From the NCBI GenBank assembly GCA_030704615.1, contig CM060734.1, positions 33,418,001 through 33,482,000 of the forward strand: DNA of 64,000 nucleotides, given 5' to 3'. Made by a program: the position numbers and the translations under genes. The DNA comes from Takakia lepidozioides (Eukaryota > Plantae > Bryophyta). Positions 18,601 through 41,798 of the stretch are shown piece by piece (the first letter of the stretch is position 1; the number at the start of each line of letters is the position of its first letter). A model generated the notes under the pieces. It searched no databases. It had not been told where the DNA came from and saw nothing but the letters and a program-made list of their open reading frames with translations.

Positions 18601-21600
18601 TCGAGGAGTCAGAGAGTATGACTGGAGAGGAGGACTGGATGAGGAGCAGGAAGCTACCCTGTTTGCTGCACACCCAGAGTGGGAGCAGGTTGCAGAGATG
18701 CGGCTGGAAGGCCTAAGTTGTTTAAGGGTATCTGCTGTGGTGTAGTGTCAACAACACCGATTGAAGAGGAAACCAGCAGTTACCCATCACATTTCTATGA
18801 AGAAAAAGAAGGAGAAATGGAAATCCTAGAGGAACCAGCCACTGTGAGTTTACAGGATGAAGTGGTGACTGGTTGGACAATCACAGCTGATGAGCAAGTG
18901 AGGGAAGTGAATGTGGGAACTAAAGAGGAACCAGGATGGTGAAGGTAGGAGCTGATTTGGAGCCAGAATTCTTTGAAGAAGCTAAGAGTTTGTTCATCAA
19001 ATACAGAGATGTATTTGCTTGGAGCTATGAGGATTTAACAGGGATACCACCTGAAATCTGTCAGCATAAGATTGAACTGGAACCGGGGTCAGTACCAATC
19101 AAGCAGGCAAGGTACAGAATGAATCCCAACTACGCACAGAAGGTTGGAGAAGAGATCAAGAAGTTGGCTGAGGCTAAGTTTATATACCCAATAGAGTATA
19201 CAACTTGGTTGTCACCCATTGTGATAGTTCCCAAGAAGAATGGTAAACTAAGAGTTTGTGTGAACTACAAGAAGCTGAATGCTTGTACGAAGAAAGATCC
19301 TTTCCCTTTGCCATTCACAGAAGCAGTATTAGACACTGTGGCAGGCCATGAGATGTACTCATTCATGGATGGCTTCAGTGGTATAATCAAGTGCAAGTGG
19401 CAGAAGGAGACCAAGGAAAAACAGCTTTCATCACAGACTGGGGTGCTTATGCATACAAAGTCATGCCCTTTGGACTTTGTAATGCACCAGCGACCTTTCA
19501 GAGAGTGATAAGTGAATCTTTTCATGAGTATCTGGATGATTTCATGCAGGTGTTCTTGGATGATTTCAGTGTGTACAGCTCTAAGAATGAGCACTTGCAT
19601 AAATTGGAGTTATGTCTGGCCAGATGCAGGATGAGAGGTCTGGGCCTGAATCCAGAGAAGTGTACTTTCTGTGTGAACTCAGGGGTGCTTCTGGGACACA
19701 TTGTGTGTAAGAGGGGACTTCTTGTGGATCCCAGGAAAACAGAGGCCATTAAAGCCTCTCCACCACCAGTGAATGTTAAGAGTCTAAGGAGATTCCTTGG
19801 ACAAACCAGCTATTACAGAAGATTTGTCAGACGGTATGCACAGATAGCAGCACCATTGAGCAAACTTCTGAAGAAAGATGCAGTGTTTGCATGGACACCT
19901 GAATGTCAACAGGCTTTTGAGGAACTTACATTGTCAGTAACAACTACACCTGTGCTGATTAGTCCTCACTGGCAGAAAATATTTCATGTTCACTGTGATG
20001 CTTCTGGAGAAGCACTAGGAGCGGTGTTAGCCCAAAATGTAACAGGAAGGATAGATTCACCTGTGTACTATGCTAGCCGATTGATGAACAATGCCGAAAG
20101 AAATTATAGCACAACGGAAAGAGAAGCATTGGCAATGATCTATGCAGTGAAGAAATTCAGGCATTACCTGTTGGGCAAGAAGTTTATGTTCTATGTGGAT
20201 CACCAGGCTCTGATATACCTGGTAAACAAACCTCTGATAAGCGGAAGAATAGCAAGATGGTTAATAATCTTGCACGAGTTTGAGTTCGAGGTTGTTTACA
20301 AGCCTGGGAGACTGCATCTTGTGGCGGATCACTTGTCAAGGTTATCAACAGGAGAACCAGCCACGGGAGTAGATGATCAATTACCAGATGCGAGTCTATT
20401 TACAGTGGAGGTGCAGGGAAGTGCAGATGACTGGTTAGATTGGCAGTGGCCAATCAGATACTACCTTGCTCATGGTCAGTGCCCACCAAGTTATGGAAAG
20501 GAGCAGAGAAAGAGAATTGCTATCAAGGCTCTACCTTACACTATGGTAGGGAGCAGAATGTATAAGCTAGGACCAGATGGAGTGCTGAAGCGATGCTTAT
20601 ACCACCATGAAGTTAATAAAGTTTTGGAGGAAGTTCATAAAGGAGTGGCAGGAGGTCATTTTGGAGAAGAGACTACCAGCAGGAAAATACTACATGCAGG
20701 TTACTGGTGGCCTACTTTGTTCAAAGATGTACACAAGTATTGTCAGAGTTGTGATGAATGTCAGAGGCTGGGACCTTTGCAGAGATCTGGGAAAATGTCT
20801 TTGCATCCTACAATGCCTACGGAACCATTTCAGAAATGGGGACTAGACTTTGTTGGACCAATTAACCCACCAGCCAAGAATACACAGAACAGGTACATAA
20901 TTACAGCCACTGATTATACTACGAAGTGGGTGGAAGCTAAAGCTTTGAGGGACACATAGCCAAGTCCACAGCAAGGTTTCTGTATGAGAACATACTTACA
21001 CGATTTGGCTGTCCCTTGGAATTTATCAGTGATCAAGGAAGTCACTTCATTAATGAGACCATTGAATTGTTGACTAAAGAGTTCATGATTGTGCATAGGA
21101 GGAGTACAACATATTATCCACAGGGTAATGGGCAGGCAGAGGCTACGAACAAAATACTATGTACTATCTTGGCTAAGATAGTCAATGCAAACAGAACAGA
21201 TTGGGATACAAAGCTGCTGACAGCTTTGTGGTCATACAGGACTTCATATAAAGTCACCACTAAGTATACACCATTCCAATTAGTTTATGGTATGGAAGCC
21301 TTACTTCCAGTGGAATTCCTGTTACCTACCATGAGAACGGAATGGGGAAAGAGAATGGAATTGCAAGATTCCATAAAAGTCAGGAAACATGAATTATACC
21401 ATGTGGAAGAAGTACGTGCTGATGCAGCTGATAATATGACCAGAATTCAGATGAAGAGAAAGGAACAGTTTGATGAAGGCAAGTTAAAGACTTTTAAGAC
21501 GGGAGATTTGGTTCTATGGTTGCAGAAGAAGGGAAAGATTAAAGCTTGTAAGCTTAAATCACCATGGAAAGGACCTTATGTCATACAAAAGATGTATGAT

Positions 21601-22050
21601 AACAACACCGCCATGTTACAAACCATTAACAAAGAGATGCTGGGAAGAGTCAATGCTAATAAGTTGAAGGGGTACAGTGGTATCCATGACAAACCATTGC
21701 AGCATATTTGCATGTTGAAACGCAAAAGCAGTCACGGGCTGCGCCAGTGTTACCAACGGAGTATAGAGCACTTGTCGCTAGGCCGAGCATATATGACCAG
21801 GGCGGGCAGAACAAGCGAGACACAGCCTATCACAGCCCATCACGACGTGACACAGCCTATCACAGCCCATCACAACGTGACACAGCATATCACAGCCCAG
21901 CACGGCGCAACACAGCCTATCACGACCTACCACAGCGTGTCACAACCTATCACAGCTTACCACAGTGCATCACAGCCTATCACAGCTTACCACAGTGTAT
22001 CACAGCCTATCACGGCATACCACAGTATGACACAGCCTATCACAGCTTAA
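15685..22050 (+). pseudogene. gag-pol of C1 (gag, zinc knuckles, PR, RT, RH, INT), frameshifted
   Basis: DPDVHISQFE gag motif, CAKC/CTIC/CYYC knuckles, [51 protein letters not shown]. Confidence 0.95.
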
Positions 22051-22060
22051 CACAGCCTAC
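21815..22060 (+). repeat. 21-bp tandem repeat (CACAGCCTATCACAGCTTACC-like) after the integrase
   Basis: About 11 imperfect units; also present at ~37850-38105 in C2. Confidence 0.9.
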
Positions 22061-22350
22061 TAGGGTTACACAATCCATAGAATCAGTGACAGGTGGACGC
22101 AGGATAACTTCAGTGAAATGGCCGGCGGAAGAAAGGACGGAAGCCAGTTTACAAAGGGACACGTGGAAATCAAGGCGCAACACACAGCTGAGAAGGAGTG
22201 CAAGAACGGATATCATCAAGAAAGGGGACAAGAATGGCCGTCAAAATACCTAATCAGTGCGTCAAATTGGATGAATGGCGGGCCCATTAATGAATACAAA
22301 AAGGGGCAACAGAACAAACGGCAAGTACAGAAAAACAAAATTCTTGTCAC

Positions 22351-25300
22351 ATGTGTTATCCTAGTGGACAGTCCAGCAGGGAAAGTCCACTAAAGAAAAT
22401 TAAATCTAAAATTCAGTCACAGCGGTTACAGCCAATAGAAAGCCAGAGAAGGGATCAAGAAATTGGAGGGAAATTAAGCGCAAGAGTCGGCGTCGTTCTG
22501 AGTAACGGGCGTCTCGACGGGACAAACCATCAATGCTATAGCTTTGAAGCAATGGAGGAACTAACAGACTATACGCTCGCAATATTACTTACGCAGTGGC
22601 ATAGGGACGAAACAACAGAGCGGATCTTTTCTCTTGAGCGATGCTTGCAAGCCCCGCAGGCTTACAAGAAAATACCCATAGCTTTTTGTGGCAACCATAC
22701 GTTTATGCTTTGTGCACTACAGGCATTTCTTCAGTTGTTACAGCCAAAACATTTCTGTGGGTCTAGAATGAAGAGAGTGAGAGGAATGGAGAAAATCAGG
22801 GTGAAGAGCACCACAATTCTGCAGAAACAAACGATTGCTACCCCACAGGCGATACAGATACTGAAGGAGCTGAGATTCCAAGGATTGCAAAGCAAAGATT
22901 GGACATTGCACCATAGACAGTACATGTTACAATTCTTGCAGAACTTTGAGCCAAGGACAGGAGCAACAACGGTGAAGGGAGTTGAATTAGTAATTACTCC
23001 CCTATACCTCCAGCAATTGTTTCGATTGCCAGCAGGCCAGGTGCATGTGGAGGCAAGACTGCAAATAGGGGACTTATTCCAAGAAGGGAGTTTCTTTAAA
23101 ACTCAGGGTTATGCTTGTACCAAGGCCGTGTACCCAGGGCTAAAGGAGGTAGGCCAGGTATTGAACGTTCTGTTTGCCATGAAACAGAACCAACAGTATT
23201 TGAGCAGATCCTTCACAGAGGAAATACTCAAAGCCCTGAGAGGAGAAGAGGTAGAATGGGCGGACATAATGTACAACGCACTGGTGGTAGAGGAGATGAA
23301 AAGATTACAGGGTACTGCCGCAAAGTCTCCTATTATAGTGTCTGGCCCAATCATTGCTCAAATAATTCTTGATTCTGGCATACTTGATGCGCGAGAAAGA
23401 AAGGAGATGGGAGTGTTTGAGCCAGAAACCACTGCAATGGAAGAGCAAGGCTCTTCACACAGTGAGGGTGGACTGGCAAGGCAACCCGAGAATAAGAGAC
23501 AGAGGCGGGGAAAGACTGTAGTGGCGGATCCACTGGCTTCACGGAATCCGCATGATAATGTTTCCCAAGTTTTTGTGCAGGAAGGGGCACAGCAGCACAG
23601 AGAACTGCTATTACTGGAAGCAGGACCTTCAGAGAGGGAAGAGGAAGTTACTTCAGTATCACAGCCATCACAGCCAGAGGATCGGCTTGTCACAAGGTTA
23701 CCACAAGTTGTCCATGCAGTTCAACCAGAAATAATTGATTTAGAAAAAGAAGGGTTAGATATTCCCACTACAGAACAGGTGGTGGCAGAAATAGAGAAGG
23801 GGGACCTTCTCTATGAATATTCTGGTATGGTCAAGGACACAGTGATTCCGGAGGTGCAACGTTGTCCAAGGGAAACCCTGCGGCGCATATAATACACACA
23901 CCTGTGACGGAGGTACCACAGGTAGAATGCCAAGACACTGCAGCACCAGTGACGGATGAAGTGGTTCAGGAAGAAAATCTGGTGGGGCAATGGCCTGAAT
24001 GGTTCGTAAGGCATCACACTGTTGAGGATCAGGGAGAACAGCAGCAAGCTCACCATGATGACCCTCAACAGGCTATGCTTATGAGTTCCATAAGCAGGAC
24101 ACTGATTTGTTGGGTACTTATGTCAAATCCCATGTTCCCACTACTCAATTGGCAGCTTTGAGGGAGGAACTCAGGCAAGAGTTTGAGGCTCGACTTGCCA
24201 CAGAGTGTGCAAACAAGGTCGATGAAGAGGTCACTCTCAAAATGCAGCAAAACTTAGAGAGTACAGAAGCGGCTTTGCAATTGGCCAAGGAACAATTGAT
24301 TGAGGCAGGCCTCGCACTAGAACACTTGCACGAAGCACATAAGCAACAGCTATACCAAATGCAGGTGAAGCATGAAAGCAAGTTGCAAGAAGTGAATGCA
24401 CTACATATGGAGTTGCAGACAGTGCATGACAGGATGGCCATACAATGTGCTACACTCACAACTATGCTTGACCAATCTACAAAAGAAATAAACAGTCAAG
24501 CGGAAAAATGTACGAAGGCAGAAGAAGAGAATGTTGAGCAAATGAAACTCATTGTCGATATGAAGAATACAATCTGTCGCAATGAGGATACTTTCAAGCA
24601 ATACAGGCAGGTTGAAGCTGACCAAGAGAAGCACATCCTGGAGTTGCAACAAACGGTCATGGCCAATAGAAATGAAATCTCGGTCACTAACAAGGCTTGG
24701 AAGGAAGCCAATAATCTGCTTGCTGCTTATGCAAATTTGGTTGAACCTCATGCGAAGCGCATGGAGGCTTTACAACAGCAGTTAGATGTGTACAAACTCA
24801 GAGAGGAGCACACTCTCAGAGGAACCACAAGCAACTTGGTGGATAACCACCTTATGCAGGTCTGGTTAGCACAAGGGCCAGTGGAGGGCAAAGCACCACG
24901 AAAGCTCACCCAAAGCGAAATGAATGAGCTCAGACTGCAAGTGCAGAACATTGCCACAACTACTATAGACAATGTCTATAGTAGGATAGCGGAGTTACAG
25001 GAGGATGTAGACGGACTGCAGACTCAAGTGGAGGACCTAACTTCAGATATTGACAAAAGAGTCTATATACCTGAGGAACAGCTAATGGCTTCTTATTCAC
25101 AAGCCAGAACTTTGGCTTTTCAATCTTCTTCACAGCAGGTGCAGGAGATGCCAATGATACAAGAGCCAGTGCCACCAACACCACAACAAGTCGCTGTGCC
25201 AGTAGCTGACCCTGTTGTTACTACAGCCACGCCACAGCCACCACAGCCTGACGTATGGGGCAATGCTGCTTTTAACCCACCTAAAACTCCAGCTGCAAGG

Positions 25301-26317
25301 GAGTACAGTAGGGCTATGATTATGCCCTTCAACCAAATTCCCATTGTGTTGGATTTGGTTTGGAAAGAATTTAGTCCTCCGCAGTCATTCGCACATTACT
25401 ATCAAATCATGCGCATATGGTTGCCAGTGGCAACTAGGACTAAAGTTCTTCCGAACAATCGACCAATTGAGGATCATCACTTTGCACAGTACTGGCATGA
25501 GGCAGATACCATGTTGAAGGAATTAATTGCTTTCCAAGTTGTACATGGATTCATTTATACCAAGACCAAGGAGGTAGCAAGTATTGTCATGGGATGCGGG
25601 TTATACTACGCTGCTTGTTTTCTGGTACGTTATTACATTGAGCAGCACAAGATGCAATCGCGCTTTCTGAGTTATTCCAGTGGGGATCATTGGGTCTTAC
25701 CTTCAGTGCCACCTCATATGTACCTATATGAGGCAAAAGTTATGATACAAAAGGATTCTCAAATTCGTTCATGGTTTCATGCGGCCTGGAACAATTTGTC
25801 AACACAGAAATTCGGCATTGATGATATTTTCTATAAGGGACATGTGGCATGGAAATACTTGCACAATTCACAAGTCATTGGTACCCCACTCACCTGGACA
25901 GAAAAGGAGCTAAGGGTCTTCACCAATTTTGCCATTCAGCGTTTACAACAAGTTTTAAAATATAAACTTCCAGACATGGTAGGACAACATTGTATGCCCT
26001 AGAGGATTCCACAAAAAGTTCGACAATTAAAACACCTGAGAGGCGATGAGGATTCTGATACAACTGTTTCTTCAGCGGACTCTTTTGACATGGGAGAAGA
26101 CTATGCAATTCAGATGGCAGAAAAGAAGCGATGGGGGTCTCCTATGCCTGAAAGGTTACCTCGATATCAGCCTCCAGAGGGCCTAACATATCCAGGTAGT
26201 GTTCAATCATCTCCGTCAACCAGTGACAGACCTCGGGCTCGTACACACAGTCCGCCACGAAACTCTCAACTTCAGAAAGGTGCTCGCTCACAAAGGATTG
26301 CTAATCCCAATCAGTAA
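22351..26317 (+). pseudogene. Large extra 3' ORF (ORF3) of C1: plant-transposon-protein-like N-terminus, acidic linker, coiled coil, unknown C-terminal domain
   Basis: Consecutive ORFs of 513, 99, 631 and 75 aa between INT and PPT; conserved in C2. Confidence 0.8.
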
Positions 26318-26355
26318 ACCGTGAGGACACGGCTTTTTAAGAGGGGAAGGGGTAA

Positions 26356-27447
26356 TGTTAGAGGACTGTCTGGGACTAAGACACTTATACGGGATCTATA
26401 GGGTACCCTTAATTTTTGCACAGACTGAGACCAACAGGAGCCTTAGGGGTGACAGCAGTGCACTTTAGGGGGGGGTGACACAGCCCGTCACAGCCAACAC
26501 AGCCCATCACAGCCAACATAGCCCGTCACAGCCAACACAGCCGACACAGCCAGACACAGTCAACATAGCCCGTCACAGCCAACACAGCCAGACTCAGTCA
26601 ACACAGCCCGTCACAGCCAACATAGCCAGACACAGTCAACACAGCTCGTCACAGCCGACACAGCCCATCACAGCCAACACAGCCCGTCACAGCCCGTCAC
26701 AGCCCGTCACAGTTTCACACAGCCAGTCACAGCTGTCGCGACCATAGGGAACGGATAGCCGGACAGGGAACGACTGTGGGGAACAACACCTGCGAATGGA
26801 ACATGTTAGTTCACGGACGACGGTTAGTGAGGGAAACGGTTAGAACAACGGGTAGGAAGATAAAGCTAGAAGCAAGGACTGAAAGGGGGATCATTCTTGG
26901 AGCATTTCGGGGGGGGGGGGGGGGCGGGGGGATCACTGCTGGAAGGAGTGGGAAGGAGCACTTCTTGGAGAGACTTCGGACATCACTGGGGGAAAGGAGG
27001 AGAGAGTGTATCTCTGAGCAGAAAGATGGAGAGCACGGAGTAGGAGGAGGATCTGTTGATGCTTAATGAATGCAGGCAGTAGAATTGTAATGTAGAGCAG
27101 ATTAGAGACTCCATGGCTTCAGCCTGATACTTGATAGATATTAATCTGATACACACCTCATACTCACACTGTGTAGAGAGATCTGAGTGAAGCTGTGGAA
27201 TGAATTGATGAGTTGATGGAATCCGATAAATTGATGAAGCAAACTGATACTTAATTACCAGCAGTAAAGTAACTAGCTAACATGAATGCGGGAAGGAAAA
27301 CAAATAGGAAACACCCCCATGATACACTAGCTGTAGGTCATGACTGATTGTTCTGAGCGGGCTGAGTACTTAGAGATTTCCAACTCTTCTATCTTGGAGT
27401 TTCCGCCTCGGATAGCGAAGGGATGGGTGAGTAAAAGCCGCGCGACA
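26356..27447 (+). repeat. 3' LTR of C1, preceded by PPT AAGAGGGGAAGGGG (26339-26352)
   Basis: Direct repeat of 13849-15061 with a shorter internal array. Confidence 0.95.
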
Positions 27448-27452
27448 GATAC

Positions 27453-28560
27453 ACCTGCTCCGAGTATGGGAGGATGGTCGGGTGAGGATTGTGCCTCACC
27501 CCACACATCGTGCACGGTTAGTGCGGCATGCCCATGAGGAGTTGGGGCATTTTGGAGTGCGACGCACTCACAGTTTATTGCAAGGGCAGTATTGGTGGCG
27601 TGGTATGTATACAGAGGTGCAACAGTTCGTGGCTAGGTGCATGGTGTGTGACACGGTGCGTGCTTCATTCAACGCCGCTATACCACAGTTTCATCATTTA
27701 CCAATCATGGGATTGGGCTACAGGTGGAGTCTTGACTTCGCAGGACCGTTGCCACTGACTATGCGCCACCACAGATATGTGTTGGTGATGGTGGAGCGCT
27801 TCTCCAAGTGGATTGAGTTGGTTCCATTGCGTGACAAGGCTAGTGAGGGGGCTGCGTACGCATTCTTGGTTCATGTGCTTAGCCGATTCGGTGCTCCAGC
27901 TGAGGTACTCACGGACCAAGGGAGAGAGTTCTTGGGGGAGTTTCAGGCTTTGTGTGATAAAGCCTTGATAGACCACCGCACCACTTCTTGGGATCATCCT
28001 GAGGCCGATGGCTTGGCAGAGAGAGTTGTTCAGATGGTGAAGAGGGGTTTGCGCAAGTATGGCTTGCAGAAGGGACACCTAGGAGATTGGGATCTTTAGG
28101 TTCCTTGGTTAGCCATGGGCTACAGGTTCCGCAAACAAGCATCACTTGCCTCCTTCTCACCATATTTCCTTCTCTTTGGTCGAGAGCCGGATTTGCCTGC
28201 AGCCATTTGTATGGACACTGCTCAAGTCCTTAACCTTGACGATCCGGACGTATGGGTACGTGCATGTGATCAGCGTGCAGAGTTGTTCAAGAAAGTCATG
28301 CCCATGGCTTTTGAGAACCTTGCCATTGCACAACACCGTGATACGTTGAGGTATGCCACTATACGTGGTGGAGGATATCGTCCTGGGGTTCGGAGGTTTA
28401 GCCTTGGTGACTATGTTTATTTGTAGCAGACTGCTCCTACGACTCTGGATGTTACTGCAGGGCGTGTTATTCTGAGGGTTCGAGAGGTGTTGCCCTCAGG
28501 GGTCTTGATCTTGGAGGGTCGGGATGCGCCATGTCACCTTCCCAATGTCGATGGCTGAGT
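27453..28560 (+). pseudogene. DDE integrase of the DNMT-Gypsy
   Basis: HEELGHFG...CMVC zinc domain, WSLDFAGP, LTDQGREF, DGLAERVV, SPYFLLFGREP. Confidence 0.95.
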
Positions 28561-28597: not shown

Positions 28598-28741
28598 TGC
28601 ATGCTTTGTGGGTCTGCCAAAGGGGCAGCCACCATGCTGGTGTGTGATCGATGCTCAAGGGGTTGACATATGGGATGTTTGACACCACCTCTTGAGAAGG
28701 TTCCTGACGGAGATTGGTTGTGTCCACACTGCTTGGGATAG
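28598..28741 (+). pseudogene. PHD finger at the C-terminus of pol
   Basis: Manual translation CMLCGSAKGAATMLVCDRCSRG*HMGCLTPPLEKVPDGDWLCPHCLG* fits the C4HC3 consensus; the internal stop is TGG>TGA. Confidence 0.92.
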
Positions 28742-29001
28742 TGGCAGTGGACATGACTGGAGGCAGCTAATAAGACATGGGAGGCCAAACTCATAGAAGT
28801 CAATACATGAGATCCCAAGCTCAAGTTCACAGGTTGCAAGACGGCAACTAACGATGGGGCAACTCTTGCACCCGGCCTCTTGATCTATCGAGTTTGAGTG
28901 TAGTAAGGATAGTGGTGGAGGACTTAGTGAGGCTATGGTCACTATCACATCTTGTGGCTACCTGGACTTAGAGGGACCTAAGCACCAGTTAGGGGGGCGA
29001 T

Positions 29002-29189
29002 TGTGTGGACAAGTGACTGCCATAGTGGGCAGAATAGTGGCAACCTAGTGACTGACTAGTTGTAGCCTAGTAATTGGACTAGTGGCTGGACTAGTGGTGG
29101 ACTAGTGATATACTAGTGTGTGGCGTGCACATGTGTTGTGTGGTTTTGGACAGCGATGTAGTTGTGTAGCGATATGTATGCGCATGACA
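29002..29189 (+). repeat. Terminal repeat A1 (188 bp, TG...CA) directly after PPT AGGGGGGCGA-T
   Basis: Direct repeat of 29521-29697; rich in ACTAGT. Confidence 0.9.
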
Positions 29190-29191
29190 GC

Positions 29192-29518
29192 TGTCAAGTT
29201 ATTTTACCACTAGTGTGAAACTAGCTAGGAAATAGCTAGCTTTTACATATTGACATTTGGGATTGGCCCAAGTGTCAATCCAGGGGTCAAGGCAGATTTA
29301 GGCCCTGGAGTGGTTATCTTCACGGCAAGCGCGGGAGGCTCATCTTTCTCGAGTTGAGCCTCACCGCGCCTAGCTATGGCGCCGTAGTGTGGATTCCCCA
29401 TGGCGTGGGGTGCACTTGGCTTGACTTGTATTTGAGTGATGAGGTTATATATGCATGAGTTTATGCTTCAGCTTTGTGAGCTCGCATGAGCTTGTGCTTG
29501 TATTCTTCCTCTTTATCA
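29192..29518 (+). repeat. Terminal repeat B2 (327 bp, TG...CA)
   Basis: Inverted match to 13-339; joined to A1 by CA-GC-TG and to A2 by CA-AT-TG. Confidence 0.9.
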
Positions 29519-29520
29519 AT

Positions 29521-29697
29521 TGTGTGAACTAGTGACTGCCATAGTGGGCAGCCTAGTGACTGACTAGTTGTAGCCTAGTGGTTGGACTAGTGGCTGGACT
29601 AGTGGTAGACTAGTGATATACTAGTGTGTGGCATGCACATGTGTTGTGTGGTTTTGGACAGCGATGTAGTTGTGTAGCGATATGTATGCGCACGACA
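29521..29697 (+). repeat. Terminal repeat A2 (177 bp), right end of the element
   Basis: Copy of A1 with an 11-bp indel and about 7 substitutions; followed by TSD AATC. Confidence 0.9.
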
Positions 29698-31340
29698 AAT
29701 CGTATAACCAATCTTGAAGCTCTATGTTATCAATTGCATTTGAGGTAGGTTTTATATTTATTATTTGTTTTCAGAATATAAAAAGTGAAGTATCATGGTG
29801 TTGTAATGAGTTACGTCAACCCGATGAGAACACAATATTGTCGTATCACGATTTATAAAGTTTTGAATTGTCTCGGATTGTATATAGCAAGATTTTAATG
29901 TATCATGTATTTCTGACTCAGTGGGTTTTCTATTTCTTATAATATTTAAAAAATGTAAGTATTCTAAATCAGATGAATGTCGAATTGCTGAAGTAAGAAT
30001 ATGTTTGTGGGCTGATTGATACACATGAGAACATGAAATATGACACATACAATTTAACGAACGATTTTTATTCTTATGTATACATACTAGAGGTAATTGA
30101 GCAAGGTCACCCACTAGAAGTAATAACTTTTTGGATTTCGTTTTATTAAATTGTGGATCAACATGTCGAAGTCTACACAATACAAATTGGATAATTTCGG
30201 AAGTCATCATTAATATTTCATCTATTATAATTATATCAGCAAATTGTAGTTGAAAAAAAATTTCATTACTTTCATATAATCGAGTTGGGTGACCTTTGAT
30301 TGGTATAGCAAATTGGGAATAAACCGTTTTTGCATACGGGCTAATACGTGTTGCTGCAGCTCCTGTTGTGGCACATAATAGTACATTTTTTTTTCCTATT
30401 GAAAATTGATAAGTTATATATTTAATAAAAAAATGTCTTACCACTTCCTGGTGACCCTTCAATAATATGTACACCATTTTTAGAAGATTTAAATCTCTCC
30501 AAAATAATATTTTGATCATATGTCAATGTTTTCATATTGCATACTATGGAAAATTTGTAGATTACGTGAATGCATATGTGCACTTTCATTTACCATATTT
30601 ATATTTGTTGTATTTATTGTTGGAAGTATATTAGTACAAGTTAGATGTTCTTCGTTATTGATATTATAATTTTGTAAAATATTCACTATTAATTGTTGGG
30701 TTTGTTGAGTTGTATATAAATTTCTAGATGAATAAGGTTGTATAATATTTATCAAATCTGATTCATTTGTCAAAATATGTCGTAATTTACATTCCATAAA
30801 ATATGATTTTGATGTATTTGAGGCAGAAGTTAGGTCAACTTCATTTTCAAATGGTAGTTTATGTAATAAAACATTAAGAAAATATGGTTCTGTATGATGG
30901 GCTGGATGATAATCTGTAAATCTTACTATTCGATTTGTACAATATACATAATTACTCAATGCATCACGGCTTTGTAAAATTTTATTTTTAATCGGTTTTT
31001 TTTTTCTATGATGTACTGAGACCAATATTGGATGAATGTAAGATGTAAGAGATTTTCTGGTCTCATCGAATATAAATCAAATGAGATGAAGAGATAAGTT
31101 GCTAGATTTTTGAATAAATCGTGTTCTATGTTGTACAGGTGCACTATTAATGTAATAAACAGCTTCACTTCTTTGAATTATAGGTATATTAGATAATGTA
31201 ATTGCTGCTTTTGTTATAGATACTGGCTTACTAAGAACATAAGACGAAATAACTTTTAATTGTATTTCGGATAAATCAGTAAGTCCTAACTTCATAGCAT
31301 CATTAGCATTTAAATTTAATTTTCCAGTAGGTTCAGCTTG
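29698..31340 (-). pseudogene. Helitron RepHel: Rep C-terminal region and N-terminal part of the Pif1 helicase
   Basis: CATTGAAA, IIIIDEI, VGDLAQL, LTSAIRH helicase motifs; very AT-rich. Confidence 0.88.
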
Positions 31341-33605
31341 CCTCTCATTTTAAGATAATAGGGTCTTCAATGGGCACGTGCGATGTGGCTGGTGGTGGGC
31401 CCCGCGCACGGACGCCCGGCTCCCCAGCACCCCGCCCGCCGCTGCGCGCGGTCGCCCAGCCGCGGGCGCGGCTGCAACAACCGCGCCCGAGCCCCCGTCC
31501 GCCGCGCGGGCTAGTCCCCCGCCCATGAGTCCGCTGCCCAGCAGTCTGTCAGTCCGCTACTGGCCAGTCGGCTGCCCAGCAGTCTGCCAGTCCGCCAGTC
31601 TGCCCGCTAGTCCGGTGCTCGCCAGTCCGTTCCCAGCAGTCTACCAGTCCGCCAGTCTGCCCGCCAGTCCGCTGGCCAGTCCCTGCCATCCAGTCCGCTG
31701 ACGGCGCAGGATCGCCACCGTCCATTCCCATAACCCATCCGAGCCCTCCATTTTAGGGCTGCAATTCAAACCTGCATCCCTGCCGCCTGCCACTTGCCAG
31801 CAACCGCGAACGTGCGCACTGTTCTCCTGGCACGTTGTCGATCGTGTCCTGTACTGCGGCGCGTTTCTTGCATGTTCAAAAGCGTGTCCTTTGTACTGTA
31901 TAGGGCATGGACGTGGAAGCAAAACCCGATGATATACTGATCACGGAAAGCCCGCTTATACGGCCTCTTCGACAATGTTTGCAAACAGCAAAACCAGGAC
32001 CCTTCAACAGGAAGGATCTCCATTGGAAGAGTGAGACGCAATATGGGTTTATGGGTGTGCGAGTGAATGTTGAAAAGGCCTGCATACCTTGGGATAGAGT
32101 TGGTGACTTCGTCCTGGGAGAGGAGAGTTTGGAGGACTACCCCACTCAGTTTTGGGTGAATGTCCATTCTAAAGTGGAACCCGGCTCGCGAAAAGCACCC
32201 AGAGCCAACACATTTCTGTCCAGTATTATGTGTGCACCATCCTCAGTCCTTTTGACGTTTCATTGCATGTCTGTTGCCATTTTGTTTCACGAGTTCTCTG
32301 ATTTTATGCTTCCTCAAGTCGTTGGATATCGATTTTAGAATTTTCTGTCCAGCTATCAATGCTGTTACGGTCCTGATGACAAGCGCACCAACAAGGCAAT
32401 AGTGGAGGATCCAAAACAAAAGCGTGGAGGACCTCTTGTGGGTGCTGGATGGAACATCTTGCCCTCATAAAGGCCCAAGGAGAAAGAAGTCGGAGTATGA
32501 AGAGTCTTACAAACGTGGTTGTCAATGCTGTTTCAAGGTCCAGCAATGCTATCTCGCCCCTGACATCTGTGTCCTCACGTACTACAACAACATGGAGCAT
32601 ACAGATGCGCAAGGGAAACCCTCGCATGGGAAGTCTGCAGAGTTCAGGAACACCCGTGTCGCGCGGCTTTTACTCATCCATCCCTTCGCTATCCGAGGCG
32701 GAAACTCCAAGATAGAAGAGTTGGAAATCTCTAAGTACTCAGCCCGCGCAGAACAATCAGTCATGACCTACAGCTAGTGTATCATGGGGGTGTTTCCTAT
32801 TTGTTTTCTTTTTGGCATTCATGTTAGCTACCTTACCATTGATAGTTAAGTATCAGTTTGCTTTATCAATCTATTGGATTCCATCAACTCATCCATTCAT
32901 TCCACAGCTTCACTCAGATCTCTCTACACAGTGTGATTGTATCGTATAAGTATCCGATTATGATTTATCAGGTATCAGGCCGAAGCCATTGTGTCTCTAA
33001 TCTGCTCTACAATATCACTACAGCTTTGCATATAACAAGTATCTACTCCTCATCTCTCCATCTTCGCTTCCGTTCTTCATCTCTGCCCGATCCCCTCTCC
33101 TGCATGACCAAGAAGTCCTCTCCTTTCCCTCACTAACCGTCGTCCGTGAACTAACATGTTCCATTTGCAGGTGTTGTCCCCACAGTCGTTCCCTGTCCTG
33201 CTCTCCGTTCCCCTATGGTCGTGACAGCTGTGTCAAGCTGTGACTGGCTTGTGTGAAACTGTGTCGGGCTGTGACTGGCTGTGTGGCTGTGTCTGCTGTG
33301 ACGACTGTGACGGGCTGTGTTGGCTGTGTCGGCTGTGACTGCTGTGTCGACTGTGACGGGCTGTGTTGGCTGTGTCGGTTGTGACGGCTGTGTCGACTGT
33401 GACGACTGTGATGGGCTGTGTGGCTGTGTCGGCTGTGACGGCTGTGTAACCCCCCTCTACAGTGCGCTGCTGTCACCCTAAGGCTCCTGTTGGTCTCAGT
33501 CTGTGCAAAAATTAAGGGTACCTATAGATCCCGTATAAGTGTCTTAGTCCCAGACAGTCTCTAACATTACCCCTTCCCCTCTTAAAAAGCCGTGTCCTCA
33601 CGGTT

Positions 33606-36600
33606 TACTGATTGCGATTAGCAAACCTTTGTGAGTGAGCACCTTTCTGACGTTGAGAGTTTCGTGGCGGACTGTGTGTACGAGCCCGAGGTCTGTCTCT
33701 AGTTGACGGAGATGGTTGATTACTACCTGGATAAGTGAGGCCCTCTGGAGGCTGATATCAAGGTAACCTTTCAGGCATAGGAGACCCCCGTCGCTTCTTC
33801 TCTGCCATCTGAATTGCATAGTCTTCTCCCATGTCAAACGAATTCGGTGAAGAAACAGTTGTATCAGAATCTTCATCGCCTCTCAGGTGTTTTAGTTTTC
33901 GAACTTTTTGTGGAATCCTCTGGGGCATACAATGTTGTCCTACCATGTCTGGAAGTTTATATTTTACAACTTGCTGTAACCGCTGAACAACAAAATTGGT
34001 GTAGACACTGAGCTCCTTGTCTGTCCAGGTGAATGGGGTACCAATTACTGGTGCAACGTGCAAGTATTTCCATGCCACATGTCCCTTATAGAAAATATCA
34101 TCAATGCCGAATTTCTGTGTTGACAAATTGTTCCAGGCCGCTTGAAACCATGAACGAATTTGAGAATCCTTTTGCATCATAACTTTTGCGTCATATAGGT
34201 ACATATGAGGTGGCACCGAAGGTAATACCCAATGATCCCCACTGGAATAACTCAGAAAGCGCGCTTGCATCTTGTGCTGCTCAATGTGATAACGTACCAG
34301 AAAACAAGCAGTGTAGTATAACCCGCATCCCATAACAATACTTGCTACCTCCCTGGTCTTGGTATAAATGAGTCCATGTACAACCTGGAAAGCAATTAAT
34401 TCCCTCAACATGGTACCTGCCTCATGCCAGTACTGCGCAAAGTGATGATCCTCAATTGGTCGATTGTTCGGAAGAACTTTAGTCCTAGTTGCCACTGGCA
34501 GCCAAATGCGCATGATTTGGTAGTAATGTGCGAATGACTGCGGAGGACTAAATTCTTTCCAAGCCAAATCCAACATGATGGGAATTTGATTGAAAGGCAT
34601 AATCATAGCCCTACTGTACTCCCTTGCAGCTGGAGTTTTTGGTGGGTTAAAAGCAGCATTGCCCCATACCTCAGGCTGTGGTGACTGCGGTGTGGTTGTA
34701 GTAACAACAGGTTCAGCTACTGGTACAGTGACTTGTTGTGGTGTTGGTGGTACTGGCTCTTGTATCATTGGCATCTCCTGCACCTCCTGTGAAGACTGAA
34801 AAGCCAAAGTTCTGGCTTGTAAATAAGAAGCCATTAGCTGTTCCTGAGGGATATAGACTCTGTCGATGTTTGAAGTGAGGTCCTCCACTTGAGTCTGCAG
34901 TCCGTCTACACCCTCCTGTAATTCTGCTATTCTACTATAGACATTGTCTATAGTAGTTGTGGCAATGTTCTGCACTTGCAGTCTGAGCTCATTCATCTCG
35001 CTTTGGGTGAGCTTTCGTGGTGCTTTGCCCTCTACTGGCCCTTGTGCTAACCAGACCTGCATAAGGCTGTTATCCACCAAGTTGCTTGTGGTTCCCCTGA
35101 GAGTTTGCTCATCTCTTAGCTTGTACACTTCTAACTGCTGTTGTAAAGCCTCCATGCGCTTCGCATGAGGTTCAACCAAATTTGCATAAGCAGCAAGTAG
35201 ATTATTAGCTTCCTTCCAAGCCTTGTTAGTGACCGTGATTTCAGTTCTATTGGCCATGAGCGTTTGTTGCAACTCTACGATGTGCTTCTCTTGATCAGCT
35301 TCAACCTGCCTGTATTGCTTGAAAGTATCCTCATTGCGACAGATTGTATTCTTCATATCGACAATGAGTTTCATTTGCTCAACATTCTCTTCTTCTGCCT
35401 TCGTACATTTTTCCGCTTGACTGTTTATTTCTTTTGTAGATTGGTCAAGCATAGTTGTGAATGTAGCACATTGTATCGTCATCCTGTCATGCACTGTCTG
35501 CAACTCCGTATGTAGTGCATTCACTTCTTGCAACTTGCTTTCATGCTGCATGCATTTGGTATAGCTGTTGCTTATGTGCTTCGTGCAACTGGTCTTGCGC
35601 GAGGCCTGCCTCAATCAATTGTTCCTTGGCCAATTGCAAAGCCGCTTTTGTATTTCCCAAGTCATGCTGCATCTTGAGAGTGACCTCTTCATCGACCTTG
35701 TTTGCACACTCAGTGGCTAGTCGAGCCTCAAACTCCTTCGTGAGTTCCTCTCTCAAGGCTGTCAATTGGGTAGTTGGAACATGGGATTTGACATAAGTCC
35801 CCAACAAATTAAGTGTCCTGCCTATGGAACTCATCAGCATTGCCTGTTGAGGGTCATCATGGTGAGGTTGCTGCTGTTCCTCCTGATCCTCAACCGTGTG
35901 ATGTCTCACGAACCACTCAGGCCATTGTCCCACCGGATTTTCTTCCTGAACCACTTCATCTATTACCGGTGCTACAGTGTCATGACCTTCTGCCTGTGGT
36001 ACCTCCGACACAGGTGTGCGTATTATATGCACCTCAGGATTTCCCTTGGGCAACTGTTGCACCTCTGGAATCTCTGTCTCCTTGACCAGACCAGAATATT
36101 CATAGAGAAGGTCCCCCTTCTCCATTTCTGCCACTATCTGTTCTGTAGTTGGAATATCTAACCCTTCTCTTTCCAAATCAATTATTTCTGGTTGAGCTGC
36201 ATGGACAACTTGTGACCTTATGACAAGCCGATCAGCTGGCTGTGATGGTTGTGATACTGAAGTAACTTCCTCCTCCCTCTCTGAAGGTCCTGCTTCCAGT
36301 AATAGCATTTCTCTGTGCAGCTGTGCCCCTTCCTACACATGAGCTTGAGAAACATTATCATGCGGAATCCGTGAAGCCAGTGGATTCGCCACTACAGTCT
36401 TTCCCCGTCTCTGCCTCTTAGTCTCGGGTTGCCCTGCTAGTCCACCCTCACTGTGTGAAGAGCCTTGCTCTTCCATTGCAGTGGTTTCTGGCTCAAACAC
36501 TCCCATCTCCTTTCTTTCTTGCGCATCAAGTATGCCAGAATCAAGAATTATTTGAGCAATGATTGGGCCAGACACTATGATAGGAGACTTTGCGGTAGTA

Positions 36601-37365
36601 CCTTGTAATCTTTTCATCTCCTCCACCAGTGCGTTGTACATTATGTCCGCCCATTGTACCTCTTGTCCTTCAGGGCTTTGAGTATTTCCTCCGTGAAGGA
36701 TCTGCTCAAATACTGTTGGTTCTGTTTCATGGCAATCAGAACGTTCAATACCTGGCCTACCTCCTTTAGCCCTGGGTACACAGCCTTGGTACAAGCATAA
36801 CCCTGAGTTTTAAAGAAACTCCCTTCTTGGAATAAGTCCCCTATTTGCAGTCTTGCCCTGTGTTCCTCCACATGCACCTGACCTGCTGGCAATCGAAACA
36901 ATTGCTGGAGGTGGAGTAATCACTAATTCAACTCCCTTCACCGTTGTTGTTCCTGTCTTTGGCTCAAAGTTCTGCAAAAATTGTAACATGTACTGTCTAT
37001 GGTGTAAAGTCCAATCTATGCTTTGCAATCCTTGCAATCTCAGCTCCTCCAGTATCTGTATCGCCTGTGGGGTAGCAATCGTTTGTTTCTGCAGAATTGT
37101 GGTGCTCTTCACCCTGATTTCCTCCATTCCTCTCACTCTCTTCATTTTAGACTCACAGAACTGTTTTGGCTGTAACAACTGCAGAAATGCCTGTAGTGCA
37201 CAAAGCATAAACGTATGGTTGCCACAAAAAGCTATGGGTAATTTCTTGTAAGCCTGTGGAGCTTGCAAGCATCGTTCAAGAGAAAAGCTCCGCTCTGTTC
37301 TTTCGTGTCTTTGCCACTGCGTAAGTAATATTGCGAGCGTATAGTTTGTTAGTTCCTCCATAGTT
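33606..37365 (-). pseudogene. Extra 3' ORF (ORF3) of C2
   Basis: Homologous to 22351-26317; frameshifted. Confidence 0.8.
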
Positions 37366-38426
37366 TCCAAGCTATAGCATTGATGGTCTGTCCCGTCGAG
37401 ACGCCCGTTACTCAGAACGACGCCGCCTCTTGCGCTCAATTTCCCTCCATTTTCTTGATCCTTTCTCTGGCTTTGTATTGGCTGTATCCGCTGTGACTGG
37501 ATTTTAGATTTCATTTTCTTTAGTGGACTTTCCCTGCTGGATAGTCCACTAGGATCACACATGTGACAAGAATTTCGCTTTTCTGTACTTGCCGTTTGTT
37601 CCGTTCCCCTTTTTCCGTATTCATTAATGGGCCCGCCTTTCATCCATTTTGACGGCCGTTCTTGTCCTCTTTCGTTATGACACCTGTTCTTGCACTTCCT
37701 TCTCAGCTGTGTGTCGCACCCTGACTTCCACGTGTCTATTTTTAAACTGGTTTCCGTCTTTTCTTCCGTCAGCCATTTTCCTGAAGTTATTGTGTGTCCA
37801 CCTGTCACTGATTCTATGGATTGTGTAACCCTAGTAGGCTGTGTTGAGCTGTGACAGGCTGTGTCATACTGTGGTACGCTGTGATAGGCTGTGATGCACT
37901 GTGGTAAGCTGTGATAGGCTGTGACACGCGGTGGTAGGTTGTGATAGGCTGTGTTGTACTGTGGTAAGCTGTAATAGGCTGTGACACGCGGTGGTAGGTT
38001 GTGATAGGCTGTGTTGTGCCGTGCTGGGCTGTGATAGGTTGTGTCACGTTGTGATAGGCTGTGATAGGCTGTGTTTCGCCTTGATGGGCTGTGATAGGCT
38101 GTGCTTTGCCTTGTCCGCCCGCCCTGGTCATATATGCTTGGCCTAGCGACAAGTGCTCCATACTCCGTTGGTAACACTGGTGCAGCCCGTGATTGCTCTT
38201 GCGTTTCAACATGCAAATCATGCTGCAAGGGTTTGTCATGGATACCACTGTATCCCTTTAACTTATTGGCATTGACTCTTCCCAGCATTTCTTTGTTAAT
38301 GGTTTGTAACATGGCGGTGTTGTTATCATACATCTTTTGTATGACATAAGGTCCTTTCCATGGTGATTTAAGCTTAGAAGCTTTAATCTTTCCTTTCTTC
38401 TGCAACCATAGAACCAAATCCCCCGT

Positions 38427-41400
38427 CTATAAAGTCTTTAACTTGCCTTCATCAAACTGTTCCTTTCTCTTCATCTGAATTCTGGTCATATTATCAGCTG
38501 CATCAGCACGTACTTCTTCCACATGGTATAATTCATGTTTCCTGACCTTAATGGAATCTTGCAATTCCATTCTCTTTCCCCACTCCGTTCTCATGGTAGG
38601 TAACAGGAATTCCACTGGAAGTAAGGCTTCCATACCATAAACTAATTGGAATGGTGTATACTTAGTGGTGACTTTGTATGAAGTCCTGTATGACCACAAA
38701 GCTATCAGCAGCTTTGTATCCCAATCCGTTCTGTTTGCATTGACTATCTTAGCCAAGATAGTACATAGTATTTTGTTGGTAGCCTCTGCCTGCCCATTAC
38801 CCTGTGGGTAATATGTTGTACTCTTTCTATGCACAATCATGAACTCTTTAGTCAACAACTCAATGGTCTCATTCATGAAGTGACTTCCCTGATCACTGAT
38901 AAATTCTAAGGGACAGCCAAATCGTGTAAGTATGTTCTCATACAGGAACCTTAATGTGGACTTGGCTGTGTTGTCCCTCAAAGCATTAGTTTCCACCCAC
39001 TTTGTAGTATAATCAGTGGATGTAATTATGTACCTGTTCTGTGTATTCTTGGCTGGTGGGTTAATTGGTCCAACAAAGTCTAGTCCCCATTTCTGAAATG
39101 GTTCCGTAGGCATTGTAGGATGCAAGGCCATCCTTCCAAATCTCTGCAAAGGTCCTAGCCTCTGACATTCATCACAACTCTGACAATACTTGTGTACATC
39201 TTTGAACAAAGTAGGCCACCAGTAACCTGCATGTAGTATTTTCCTGCTGGTAGTCTCTTCTCCAAAATGACCTCCTGCCACTCCTTTATGAACTTCCTCC
39301 AAAACTTTATTAACTTCATGGTGGTATAAGCATCGCTTCAGCACTCCATCTGGTCCTAGCTTATACATTATGCTCCCTACCATAGTGTAAGGTAGAGCCT
39401 TGATAGCAATTCTCTTTCTGTGCTCCTTTCCATAACTTGGTGGGCACTGACCATGAGCAAGGTAGTATCTGATTGGCCACTGCCAATCTAACCAGTCATC
39501 TGCACTTCCCTGCACCTCCACTGCAAATAGACTCGCATCTGGTAATTGATCATCTATTCCTGTGGCTGGTTCTCCTGTTGATAACCGTGACAAGTGATCC
39601 GCCACAAGATGAAGTCTCCCAGGCTTGTAAACAACCTCGAACTCAAACTCGTGCAAGATTATCAACCATCTTGCTATTCTTCCGCTTATCAGAGGTTTGT
39701 TTACCAGGTATATCAGAGCCTGGTGATCCACATAGAACATAAACTTCTTGCCTAACAGGTAATGCCTGAATTTCTTCACTGCATAGATCATTGCCAATGT
39801 TTCTCTTTCCGTTGTGCTATAGTTCCTTTCAGCACTGTTCATCAACCGGCTAGCATAGTACACAGGTGAATCTATATTTCCTGTAACATTCTGGGCTAAC
39901 ACCGCTCCCAACGCTTCTCCTGATGCATCGCAGTGAACATGAAATACTACATGCCAGTGAGGGTTAATCAGCACAGGTGTAGTTGTTACTGACAGTGTAA
40001 GTTCCTCAAACGCCTGTTGACATTCAGCTGTCCAGGCAAACACTGCATCTTTCTTCAGTAGTTTGCTCAATGGTGCTGCTATTTGTGCATACCTTTTTAC
40101 AAATCTTCTGTAATAACTGGTTTGCCCAAGGAATCTCCTTAGATTCTTAACATTCACTGGTGGTGGAGAGGGTTTAATGGCTTCTGTCTTCCTGGGATCC
40201 ACAAGGAGTCCCTTCTTACACACAATGTGTCCCAGAAGCACCCCTGAGTTCACACAGAAAGTACGCTTCTCTGGATTCAGGCCCAGACCTCTCATCCTGC
40301 ATCTGGCCAAACATAACTCCAATTTATGCAAGTGCTCATTCTTAGAGCTGTACACACTGAAATCATCCAAGAATACCTGCATGAAATCATCCAGATACTC
40401 ATGAAAAGATTCACTTATCACTCTCTGAAAGGTCGCTGGTGCATTACAAAGTCCAAAGGGCATGACTTTGTATGCATAAGCCCCCCAGTCTGTGATGAAT
40501 GCTGTTTTTCCTTGATCTTCTTCTGCCACTTGCACTTGATTATAACCACTGAACCCATCCATGAATGAGTACATCTCATGGCCTGCCACAGTGTCTAATA
40601 CTGCTTCTGTGAATGGCAAAGGGAAAGGATCTTTCTTCGTACAAGCATTCAGCTTCTTGTAGTTCACACAAACTCTTAGTTTACCATTCTTCTTGGGAAC
40701 TATCACAATGGGTGACAACCAAGTTGTATACTCTATTGGATATATAAACTTAGCCTCAGCCAACTTCTTTATCTCTTCTCCAACCTTCTGTGCGTAGTTG
40801 GGATTCATTCTGTACCTCGCCTGCTTGATTGGTACTGACCCTGGTTCCAGTTCAATCTTATGCTGGCAGACTTCAGGTGGTATCCCTTTTAAATCCTCAT
40901 AACTCCAATCAAATACATCTTTGTATTTGATGAACAAGCTTTTAGCTTCTTCAAAGAACTCCGGCTCCAAATCAGCTCCTACTTTCACCATCCTTGGTTC
41001 CTCTTTAGTTCCCACATTTACTTCCCTCACTTGCTCATCAGCTGTGATTGTCCAACCACTCACCACTTCATCCTGAAAGCTCTCAGTGGCTGGTTCCTCT
41101 AGGATTTCCATTTCTCCTTCTCTTTCCTCATAGAAATGTGATGGGTAACTGCTGGTTTCCTCTTTAGTTGGTGTTGCTGACACTACACCACAGCAGATAC
41201 CTCTTAAACAACTTAGGCTTTCCAGCCGCATCTCTGCAACCTGCTCCCACTCTGGGTGTGCAGCAAATAGGGTAGCTTCCTGCTCCTCATCCAGTCCTCC
41301 TTTCCAGTCATACTCTCTGACTCCTCGAGGTCTTCTTGTAGCAGGTAATCTACTAGATTTCTTTGTGGTAATTTGTATCTCGTGTATCCCATTATGCACG

Positions 41401-41798
41401 GTTAGTAACTGAGAATTCCAGTCATGGAATACCCTGGCCTGTTTCAGCCACGGACGTCCCAATAATAAGGAGTAAGCCTCCATGACTTCATCCATCTTCA
41501 ACACAGTTATTGTGATCATAAAGATCATCTTCTGTATCTGTATCTTAACTCCTCTTATCAATCCCAATGGTTGTACACTTCTTTGATCTGCCATTGTTAC
41601 TGTAAATGGGGCTGGTTTCATGTTACTTAGACCAAGCTTCTTCCTTAATTGGTCTGTCATGATATTTACTCCAGAACCTCCATCTATCAGTACATCAGTT
41701 ATTTCTGTGCTTCCAATTCTCAATTGGATTACTGGCATAGAATCATCAAAGTCCATGACTGTTTCTCGCCCTTCCGGCTTCACATTATAACTGGTCAC
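38427..41798 (-). CDS. pol of C2 (PR-RT-RH-INT), 1123 aa uninterrupted
   Basis: All catalytic motifs lie in one ORF; frameshifts only at its flanks. Confidence 0.95.
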   Translation of the reverse strand: MTSYNVKPEGRETVMDFDDSMPVIQLRIGSTEITDVLIDGGSGVNIMTDQLRKKLGLSNMKPAPFTVTMADQRSVQPLGLIRGVKIQIQKMIFMITITVLKMDEVMEAYSLLLGRPWLKQARVFHDWNSQLLTVHNGIHEIQITTKKSSRLPATRRPRGVREYDWKGGLDEEQEATLFAAHPEWEQVAEMRLESLSCLRGICCGVVSATPTKEETSSYPSHFYEEREGEMEILEEPATESFQDEVVSGWTITADEQVREVNVGTKEEPRMVKVGADLEPEFFEEAKSLFIKYKDVFDWSYEDLKGIPPEVCQHKIELEPGSVPIKQARYRMNPNYAQKVGEEIKKLAEAKFIYPIEYTTWLSPIVIVPKKNGKLRVCVNYKKLNACTKKDPFPLPFTEAVLDTVAGHEMYSFMDGFSGYNQVQVAEEDQGKTAFITDWGAYAYKVMPFGLCNAPATFQRVISESFHEYLDDFMQVFLDDFSVYSSKNEHLHKLELCLARCRMRGLGLNPEKRTFCVNSGVLLGHIVCKKGLLVDPRKTEAIKPSPPPVNVKNLRRFLGQTSYYRRFVKRYAQIAAPLSKLLKKDAVFAWTAECQQAFEELTLSVTTTPVLINPHWHVVFHVHCDASGEALGAVLAQNVTGNIDSPVYYASRLMNSAERNYSTTERETLAMIYAVKKFRHYLLGKKFMFYVDHQALIYLVNKPLISGRIARWLIILHEFEFEVVYKPGRLHLVADHLSRLSTGEPATGIDDQLPDASLFAVEVQGSADDWLDWQWPIRYYLAHGQCPPSYGKEHRKRIAIKALPYTMVGSIMYKLGPDGVLKRCLYHHEVNKVLEEVHKGVAGGHFGEETTSRKILHAGYWWPTLFKDVHKYCQSCDECQRLGPLQRFGRMALHPTMPTEPFQKWGLDFVGPINPPAKNTQNRYIITSTDYTTKWVETNALRDNTAKSTLRFLYENILTRFGCPLEFISDQGSHFMNETIELLTKEFMIVHRKSTTYYPQGNGQAEATNKILCTILAKIVNANRTDWDTKLLIALWSYRTSYKVTTKYTPFQLVYGMEALLPVEFLLPTMRTEWGKRMELQDSIKVRKHELYHVEEVRADAADNMTRIQMKRKEQFDEGKLKTL

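Follow-up and report, generated by a model that had tools for sequence, protein, structure and literature searches.

Permuted terminal repeats in a clade of Ty3/Gypsy elements suggest integration through a palindrome within the long terminal repeat

An old Ty3/Gypsy copy with split terminal repeats

We analysed a 64,000-nt stretch of the bryophyte Takakia lepidozioides (GenBank assembly GCA_030704615.1, contig CM060734.1, forward-strand positions 33,418,001 to 33,482,000), hereafter the window, whose first letter is position 1. It holds an old, dead copy of a Ty3/Gypsy element whose long terminal repeats (LTRs) are divided into two parts, A and B, laid out as B…A-GC-B-AT-A between true 4-bp target site duplications (TSDs). 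At the 3′ end, which reads on the plus strand, the polypurine tract (PPT) AGGGGGGCG (28991-28999) and an AT (29000-29001) precede A1 (29002-29189), a 188-nt repeat that represents the U3-like first part of the reverse-transcribed LTR. A GC (29190-29191) separates A1 from the second LTR part, the 327-nt B2 (29192-29518). A further AT (29519-29520) leads into the 177-nt 3′ terminal repeat A2 (29521-29697), which ends in CGACA and is followed directly by the TSD copy AATC (29698-29701). The 5′ end is now inverted and lies at the window edge, where the other AATC copy (340-343, minus strand, read from 343 to 340) stands directly before the 5′ terminal repeat B1 (13-339, minus strand, read from 339 to 13). 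B1 starts TGTCA and is adjoined by the beginning of the primer-binding site (PBS; 1-12, minus strand), which reads CTCGAGAAAGAT and is complementary to positions 29342-29353 within B2.

A sequence-only reading of this stretch had described the same series, PPT-AT-A1-GC-B2-AT-A2-AATC with an inverted AATC-B1 opposite it, and its anatomy proved exact in its coordinates. Its proposal that A1, GC and B2 behave as one 517-bp LTR also held, as the three parts total 517 nt with the PPT at the A end and the PBS at the B end. B1 and B2 differ at 3 of 327 sites, and A1 and A2 at 8 of 177, with an additional 11-nt indel.

The insertion target was an AT-rich PIF1-like (Helitron-type) helicase gene, now split into pieces at 344-770 and 29702-31076. 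The right flank carries part of its open reading frame (ORF; 29702-30522, minus strand, PIF1 match in Pfam), and the left flank the C-terminal continuation of that frame (344-700, plus strand, recognized by translation only, without a Pfam scan). The two flanks are halves of a single helicase frame and are in frame when AATC is counted once, which makes the 4-bp TSD real despite the inverted B1, and identifies B1 and A2 as the two ends of one insertion. An inversion after insertion, or else a misassembly, has parted them. This rearrangement lies between B1 and the element body (341-8070), with a candidate breakpoint near 5500, where a long interspersed element (about 1140-5500) breaks off within its reverse transcriptase. 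The 5′ untranslated region (5300-8070) had no similarity to any related locus retrieved.

The element's coding domains lie on the plus strand between about 8070 and 28740, and stops or frameshifts break all of them. A gag-like region and an aspartic protease (PR) occupy 8074-10658, with a weak Asp_protease_2 match and likeness to related loci from 8074 onwards. A C5 cytosine methyltransferase domain with PC and ENV motifs (10794-11360, PF00145) is located between PR and the reverse transcriptase (RT), which is itself broken, as is the adjoining RNase H (RH; 12528-13848, Pfam). The integrase (INT; 27453-28423) has an H2C2 zinc finger and an rve core, with a stop at 28097; its triad D102, D162 and E197 is intact, confirming the DDE assignment made in the sequence-only reading, and its best matches are the integrases of Ty3 and foamy virus. 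A PHD finger with one internal stop (28598-28738) forms the C-terminus of the polyprotein, and was recognized by likeness to the PHD of relatives, the window copy itself not having been scanned. The PR-RT-RH-INT order, the PBS after the 5′ repeat and the PPT before the 3′ repeat are those of Ty3/Gypsy elements; two complete, identical terminal LTRs with outside TSDs are lacking, the ends being the B start and the A end. No tyrosine recombinase was matched by Pfam in the window ORFs scanned.

Other features in the window stand outside this system. An unrelated Gypsy element with ordinary LTRs and a 5-bp TSD, GATAC, is nested between RNase H and integrase (13849-27447, plus strand); its LTRs show 6 differences in 559 sites, a level like that of the B pair of its host element. 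A second copy, about 93% like the first, lies at 32657-45793 on the minus strand with the TSD ACCCG. These two copies (12-13.6 kb, ordinary LTRs, 5-bp TSDs) offer a normal-LTR control within the window, and both have long extra ORFs after the integrase and internal 10-nt tandem arrays. The regions 49134-51109 and 53484-58154 contain a DUF4216 (CACTA-like) ORF, a 126-nt tandem repeat with weak PPR matches, a SWIM-finger fragment and a third Gypsy pol on the minus strand.

Recurrence of the layout in other copies and families

Public sequencing contigs were aligned to window positions 28800-29900. Sets X1 to X3 belong to one sample, possibly the window's own source, and X6 to a separate study; the flank results come from X1 to X3 and apply among the matches listed. 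Flanks were diverse behind the A2 end, at 29697 (X1, 33 contigs, agreement 0.37; X3, 25 contigs, 0.36), and before the B start (X3, 15 contigs, 0.39). A single PBS consensus followed the B end (18 contigs in X1 and 5 in X2), and no diverse flanks were seen at the A start or the B end. Scans of viral contigs gave no match.

We then drew on integrase-anchored scans, which supplied 87 loci: 80 from metagenome contigs, retained out of 519 confirmed there, and 7 from genome contigs, the latter presumably eukaryotic DNA within those genome bins. Matches to A or B of four further families were found in 57 of the 87. The LTRs of the families do not align with one another, the longest cross-family match being 39 nt between the window family and the family designated F1, and a G run before A is common to all. 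The B…A-B-A layout was seen in five LTR families, the window's included.

The intact locus L082 has the same domains as the window element, including the rve integrase and PHD, and its three ORFs of at least 200 aa contain no tyrosine recombinase. The closest solved structures to its methylase are DNMT3A and DNMT3B (E 5e-8). No chromodomain was matched in the pol of L082 or of four pol relatives, which have a PHD finger instead. L082 and L081 represent a young family in which gag-PR-DNMT (1162 aa) and RT-RH-INT-PHD (1047 aa) remain as open frames, with a single stop codon between them. L082 sits in a cyanobacterial genome bin, apparently as eukaryotic contamination, and L083 to L086 are similarly placed in other bins.

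Distinct 3′ ends with flanking sequence, drawn from four LTR families, comprised 20 of the A-B-A form (19 if L045 and L074 are one insertion), 16 with A only, and 2 B-A ends with a damaged A1. This count leaves aside L040, whose contig ends in A2, L033 and L037, with diverged A-B-A, L054, with a partial B only, and L004, L008 and L009, which supply 5′ ends only. It also leaves aside four A-B forms, L082, L019, L027 and L079. Of these, L082 and L019 have an A-B that runs into the PBS. L082 was rejected as a true A-B end, its 127-nt terminal overlap marking an assembly circle, and L019 was set aside on the assumption that it is similar, though it has no such overlap. The junction of L027 is deleted.

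All 10 distinct 5′ ends had a lone B start, and none a B-A-B (0/10, including 0/5 of the elements with an A-only 3′ end). Of the complete elements, 10 with the window copy, five carried an exact 4-bp TSD and three one with a single transition; mismatched left/right pairs gave 2/72 exact matches and 8/72 with three or more of four positions. Five complete elements are of the B…A form, and four of these have a TSD. L046, a B…A copy within another repeat, has a degenerate 7-nt duplication (2490-2505 and 11569-11590) in place of the 4 bp.

The check that the sequence-only reading had proposed for a family-wide mechanism, the order and flanks of A and B across copies, returned diverse flanks at the B start and the A end in the window family, and the same ends in five families. 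That recurrence rules out the two options it had named as refuting its account, a one-off event and solo LTRs stacked by chance. A single irregular integration, a stack of solo LTRs or a fault of assembly would accord with the rearranged state of the window copy, whose inverted B1 could be a misassembly, but the same ends, TSD length and palindrome occur in five LTR families and in independent runs, so that this explanation is refuted for the repeat layout and is, taken as a whole, scarcely credible. The structure is real and clade-wide.

The internal palindrome and a proposed route of integration

The conserved feature is the palindrome GACA/GC/TGTC with its 2-nt spacer (29186-29195 in the window, plus strand), whose halves are the integrated ends and which we take as the putative integrase site. 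Most copies in the window family have C at 29185, and the conserved palindrome is therefore this sequence and not the 12-mer of the window copy. Of 26 projected A/B junctions, 22 have a 2-nt spacer (GC 10, AC 7, AT 3, GT 2), always GC or its transition; in three of the remainder a 2-nt spacer is recognizable by eye, and the fourth is deleted. The exact sequence GACAGCTGTC occurs once in the window, against 0.07 occurrences expected. It was found 12 times in the 271 kb within 5 kb downstream of integrases and 0 times in the other 519 kb, duplicates kept. In six more distant loci, one of which has a mismatch, it likewise stands behind a PPT-like G run; there the evidence is the palindrome and not an A-B-A layout. 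Two of the six branch with Tetrabaena proteins, in a tree of a chosen subset of 46 rows that gives context at the outgroup level only. In L086, of a distant family, the internal junction (2780-2801) is a 20-bp perfect palindrome.

The sequence-only reading had regarded both junctions as palindromes, CAGCTG at 29188-29193 and CAATTG at 29517-29522, and every repeat as bounded by TG…CA. Each description is correct for the window copy. A starts with TG, AG, AT, GT or CT depending on the family, however, and TG…CA on all four repeats was rejected as a family rule. CAATTG was likewise rejected as a functional palindrome, as the B/A junction differs among copies, and it is unsuitable as a search target for circle junctions. 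Within the window family this junction (29517-29522 in the window) reads CA-AT-TG in the window copy, C-AT-TG in one X3 contig and CA-CT-AT-TG in run X7, the last corresponding to cDNA ends joined blunt without processing. In family F2, where TTCAATTCTAG continues the 5′ B into the PBS, the B/A junctions retain TTCA, TTCAA, TTCAAT or TTCAATT ahead of the A start. The junction varies by 0-3 nt in a family other than the window's, and L006, L016 and L078 retain 1-2 PPT bases. The B/A junctions are nested prefixes of PBS-side sequence fused to the PPT-side start, and the junction looks like freshly end-joined cDNA termini, the PBS-side end to the PPT-side end, rather than a conserved site.

A1 is nearer to the A2 of its own element than to shuffled A2s (permutation, F1 n = 7, p 0.006; F2 n = 11, p 5e-5), also when transversions alone are counted (p 0.016 and 5e-5, respectively). 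Position-biased A1/A2 columns amount to one in F1, at a CpG site, and none in F2. These results bear on a cycle of the Ngaro/PAT type, in which RNA would run from B1 into A2, both junctions would be inherited and a DDE integrase would stand in for the tyrosine recombinase. The repeat order is that of split-direct-repeat elements (PMC5890265), and the greater divergence of A1/A2 than of B1/B2 in the window would also suit such a cycle. It is at odds, however, with a PPT exactly at the A start and a PBS exactly at the B end, with A copies that pair by element and lack position-specific alleles bar the one CpG column, and with a B/A junction that varies as fresh end-joining would. We regard it as very unlikely.

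The complement of the PBS lies at position 151 of B in the window copy and, for 8 of 10 related loci, at 156-160; the consensus of loose ends behind 29518 lengthens the PBS/B complementarity to 16 nt (self-primer sequence at 29338-29353). From this we infer self-priming of the Tf1/Tcn1 type. In an RNA fold of the L082 B/PBS region, the minimum-energy structure consists of local hairpins rather than the primer-PBS duplex, which speaks neither for nor against self-priming. The self-primer inside B lies in a hairpin both in the window (29325-29375) and in L082 (7228-7255), and a switch between the local fold and PBS pairing is possible.

LTR retrotransposons and retroviruses integrate, in the textbook account, through the processed ends of linear cDNA. 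Here, genomic copies run from the B start to the A end between 4-bp TSDs, the PPT adjoins A and the self-complementary PBS adjoins B; by the placement of PPT and PBS the LTR is an ordinary A-GC-B, whereas the halves of the palindrome form the integrated ends. We consider it probable that the clade integrates through these two halves, likely cut by integrase, and not through the ends made by reverse transcription. RNA would start inside B1 and, likely self-primed, be copied into a normal linear A-GC-B…A-GC-B cDNA. Integrase would then nick after CA on both strands of the palindrome in the 5′ LTR, leaving 2-nt 5′ GC overhangs that are later lost, and both CA ends would be inserted with a 4-bp stagger. 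Host end-joining would likely join the leftover cDNA termini to yield B…A-B-A, whether before insertion, through a two-LTR circle, or after it, in the repair of a broken chromosome. B…A could arise by annealing of the two A copies, and equally well from an integrated one-LTR circle or through later recombination. The methylase, the self-priming PBS and the B…A product were absent from the earlier account.

If circles were obligatory, linear cDNA would first become a two-LTR or one-LTR circle, and integrase would then open the A/B junction. The B/A junction can be shaped like a blunt LTR-LTR junction (CA-CT-AT-TG), a one-LTR circle would yield the five complete B…A elements directly, and cutting and integration of two-LTR circles is possible in HIV-1 (PMC4372172). 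The two A/B junctions of such a circle are identical, however, so that B-A-B…A would be expected as often as B…A-B-A, and its count is 0/10. We hold an obligate circle to be possible, but less than probable. The sequence-only reading had begun from a two-LTR circle opened at an internal CA/GC/TG site; the equivalence of the integrated form to an A-GC-B element opened there and the 4-bp TSD stand, and the circle as first step is not established. Between the two timings, a cut in linear cDNA with later repair is slightly favoured, because the 5′ LTR would be double-stranded first and because it accounts for the absent B-A-B ends.

Integration could also proceed with no palindrome cut, if strand-displacement fronts stalled at A/B, the recessed CA-3′ ends were used directly and the 5′ flaps were trimmed or repaired. 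This would explain B…A and the GC spacer with no new integrase activity, and would fit the geometry of plus-strand transfer. On its own it yields no end-joined B/A junction and no full A2, the more frequent state of the 3′ end (20 vs 16), and we think it unlikely.

Several points weigh against integration through the palindrome halves. The palindrome cut, the circles and the transcripts are all deduced from genomic DNA, and 0 reads matched in three raw RNA runs, of each of which about 1 in 100 reads was covered. In the window, divergence is greater between A1 and A2 than between B1 and B2 (8/177 vs 3/327, Fisher p 0.02), which is not what a single intramolecular cycle predicts; two templates, conversion of B or mutation noise may be the cause. 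Gene conversion could be the source of the A1/A2 pairing. The window family may include a minority of normal AB ends, and the rearranged L079, in which A-GC-B borders on other sequence, might represent an ordinary LTR end. Two of the 10 complete elements lack a 4-bp TSD (L078 has none, and the duplication in L046 is read by eye). The 0/10 for B-A-B comes from few copies in short-read assemblies, and the B…A copies may have arisen by A1/A2 recombination after insertion or through collapse in assembly.

A wider proposal, which we put forward tentatively and would not call probable, is that the clade, whose range extends from bryophytes to green algae, has shifted its integrase attachment sites away from the cDNA termini and into one inherited palindrome within the LTR. 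A junction-cutting integrase would select the 5′ LTR and integrate two separate DNA pieces, and the host would seal the double-strand break, by end-joining to a replication-competent B…A-B-A or by annealing to a dead-end B…A. If true, retroelements would have a third way to integrate, besides end-processing and the circles of tyrosine-recombinase elements.

Relatives and known systems

Elements of the clade are abundant in the genome from which the window comes, and relatives were named from Calypogeia, Riccia, Marchantia, Sphagnum, Klebsormidium and Tetrabaena, some annotated as hypothetical host genes. Several Marchantia models labelled hypothetical protein (among P0083-P0090 and P0126) are methylase- or PHD-bearing pieces of the clade. 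An RT-RH-INT-PHD protein of Klebsormidium nitens, P0080, falls on a long branch inside a supported clade with the window integrase (98/98); no methylase was found in P0080. KnitGypsy-Dnmt3 of the same alga, compared with the window by description only, combines a Gypsy pol and a Dnmt3-related methylase with repeats that the Fig. 4c legend of de Mendoza et al. (2018) calls DIRS-like (A-coding-B-A-B) beside Gypsy domains, and the present clade shares both the gene content and the repeat order; the accessible part of that account is without TSD, palindrome, priming, B…A form or integration model (PMC5890265). A 2026 preprint names streptophyte Gypsy-DNMT3 elements, in its accessible part with no detail of repeat layout or mechanism, and Gypsy-7a_cRei of Chlamydomonas, an element active in strains kept in the laboratory, is described with a PHD and 'LTR subparts' (PMC9940879). 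The findings here extend methylase-carrying Gypsy elements from a charophyte to bryophytes.

The sequence-only reading had held split repeats to be atypical of Gypsy elements and the mode perhaps undescribed. The layout was found once in print, in the 2018 legend, and the integration mechanism nowhere, in a search of the open literature with most subscription journals and Repbase outside its scope; the mode of integration is apparently undescribed.

Tf1/Sushi and Tcn1 chromoviruses share the Ty3/Gypsy domain order, and in them too a predicted self-priming replaces the tRNA PBS; theirs is a chromodomain, whereas this clade has a PHD finger, a methylase and permuted ends (PMC6317226). Of the features that define them, the clade has the self-priming PBS, by complementarity only, and lacks the chromodomain. 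The Tcn1 search required two LTRs with TG/CA and outside TSDs, and tools that need two terminal LTRs with TSDs outside them, as there, would miss the elements of this clade or misplace their bounds (PMC6317226).

The repeat order X…Y-X-Y, with an internal junction that regenerates the integration site, links the clade to PAT, TOC1, Ngaro and SymbioDIRS-Dnmt3. In PAT and Ngaro, the internal junction of the split direct repeats restores the integration site. The clade has such split direct repeats but differs in its DDE integrase, in having a PPT, a PBS and a 4-bp TSD, and in that no tyrosine recombinase domain was found.

The palindrome where two LTRs meet in HIV-1 circles is cleaved by integrase tetramers, and these circles are capable of integration (PMC1905944, PMC4372172); the integrase of foamy virus also cleaves a palindromic two-LTR junction (PMC1180852). 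The likeness is that of an integrase cutting a palindromic CA-NN-TG junction internally, as predicted for this clade, but the viral junction is, in the accessible parts of these reports, a join of real cDNA ends and its cleavage a side route. The clade's palindrome is LTR-internal and inherited and marks nearly all observed insertion ends; the whole clade appears dependent on cutting it, where junction cleavage elsewhere is a side activity of HIV-1 and foamy virus. DDE transposases of the IS3 family open circle junctions, in which the two ends abut with a short spacer, and then insert. The IS3 enzyme, related to integrase, likewise opens abutted, spacer-separated ends, but it serves a DNA transposon and its junction is made by the transposase rather than encoded in an LTR. 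The clade would thus offer a natural substrate for junction integration, defined by 10 bp, that links integrases to chemistry of the IS3 type.

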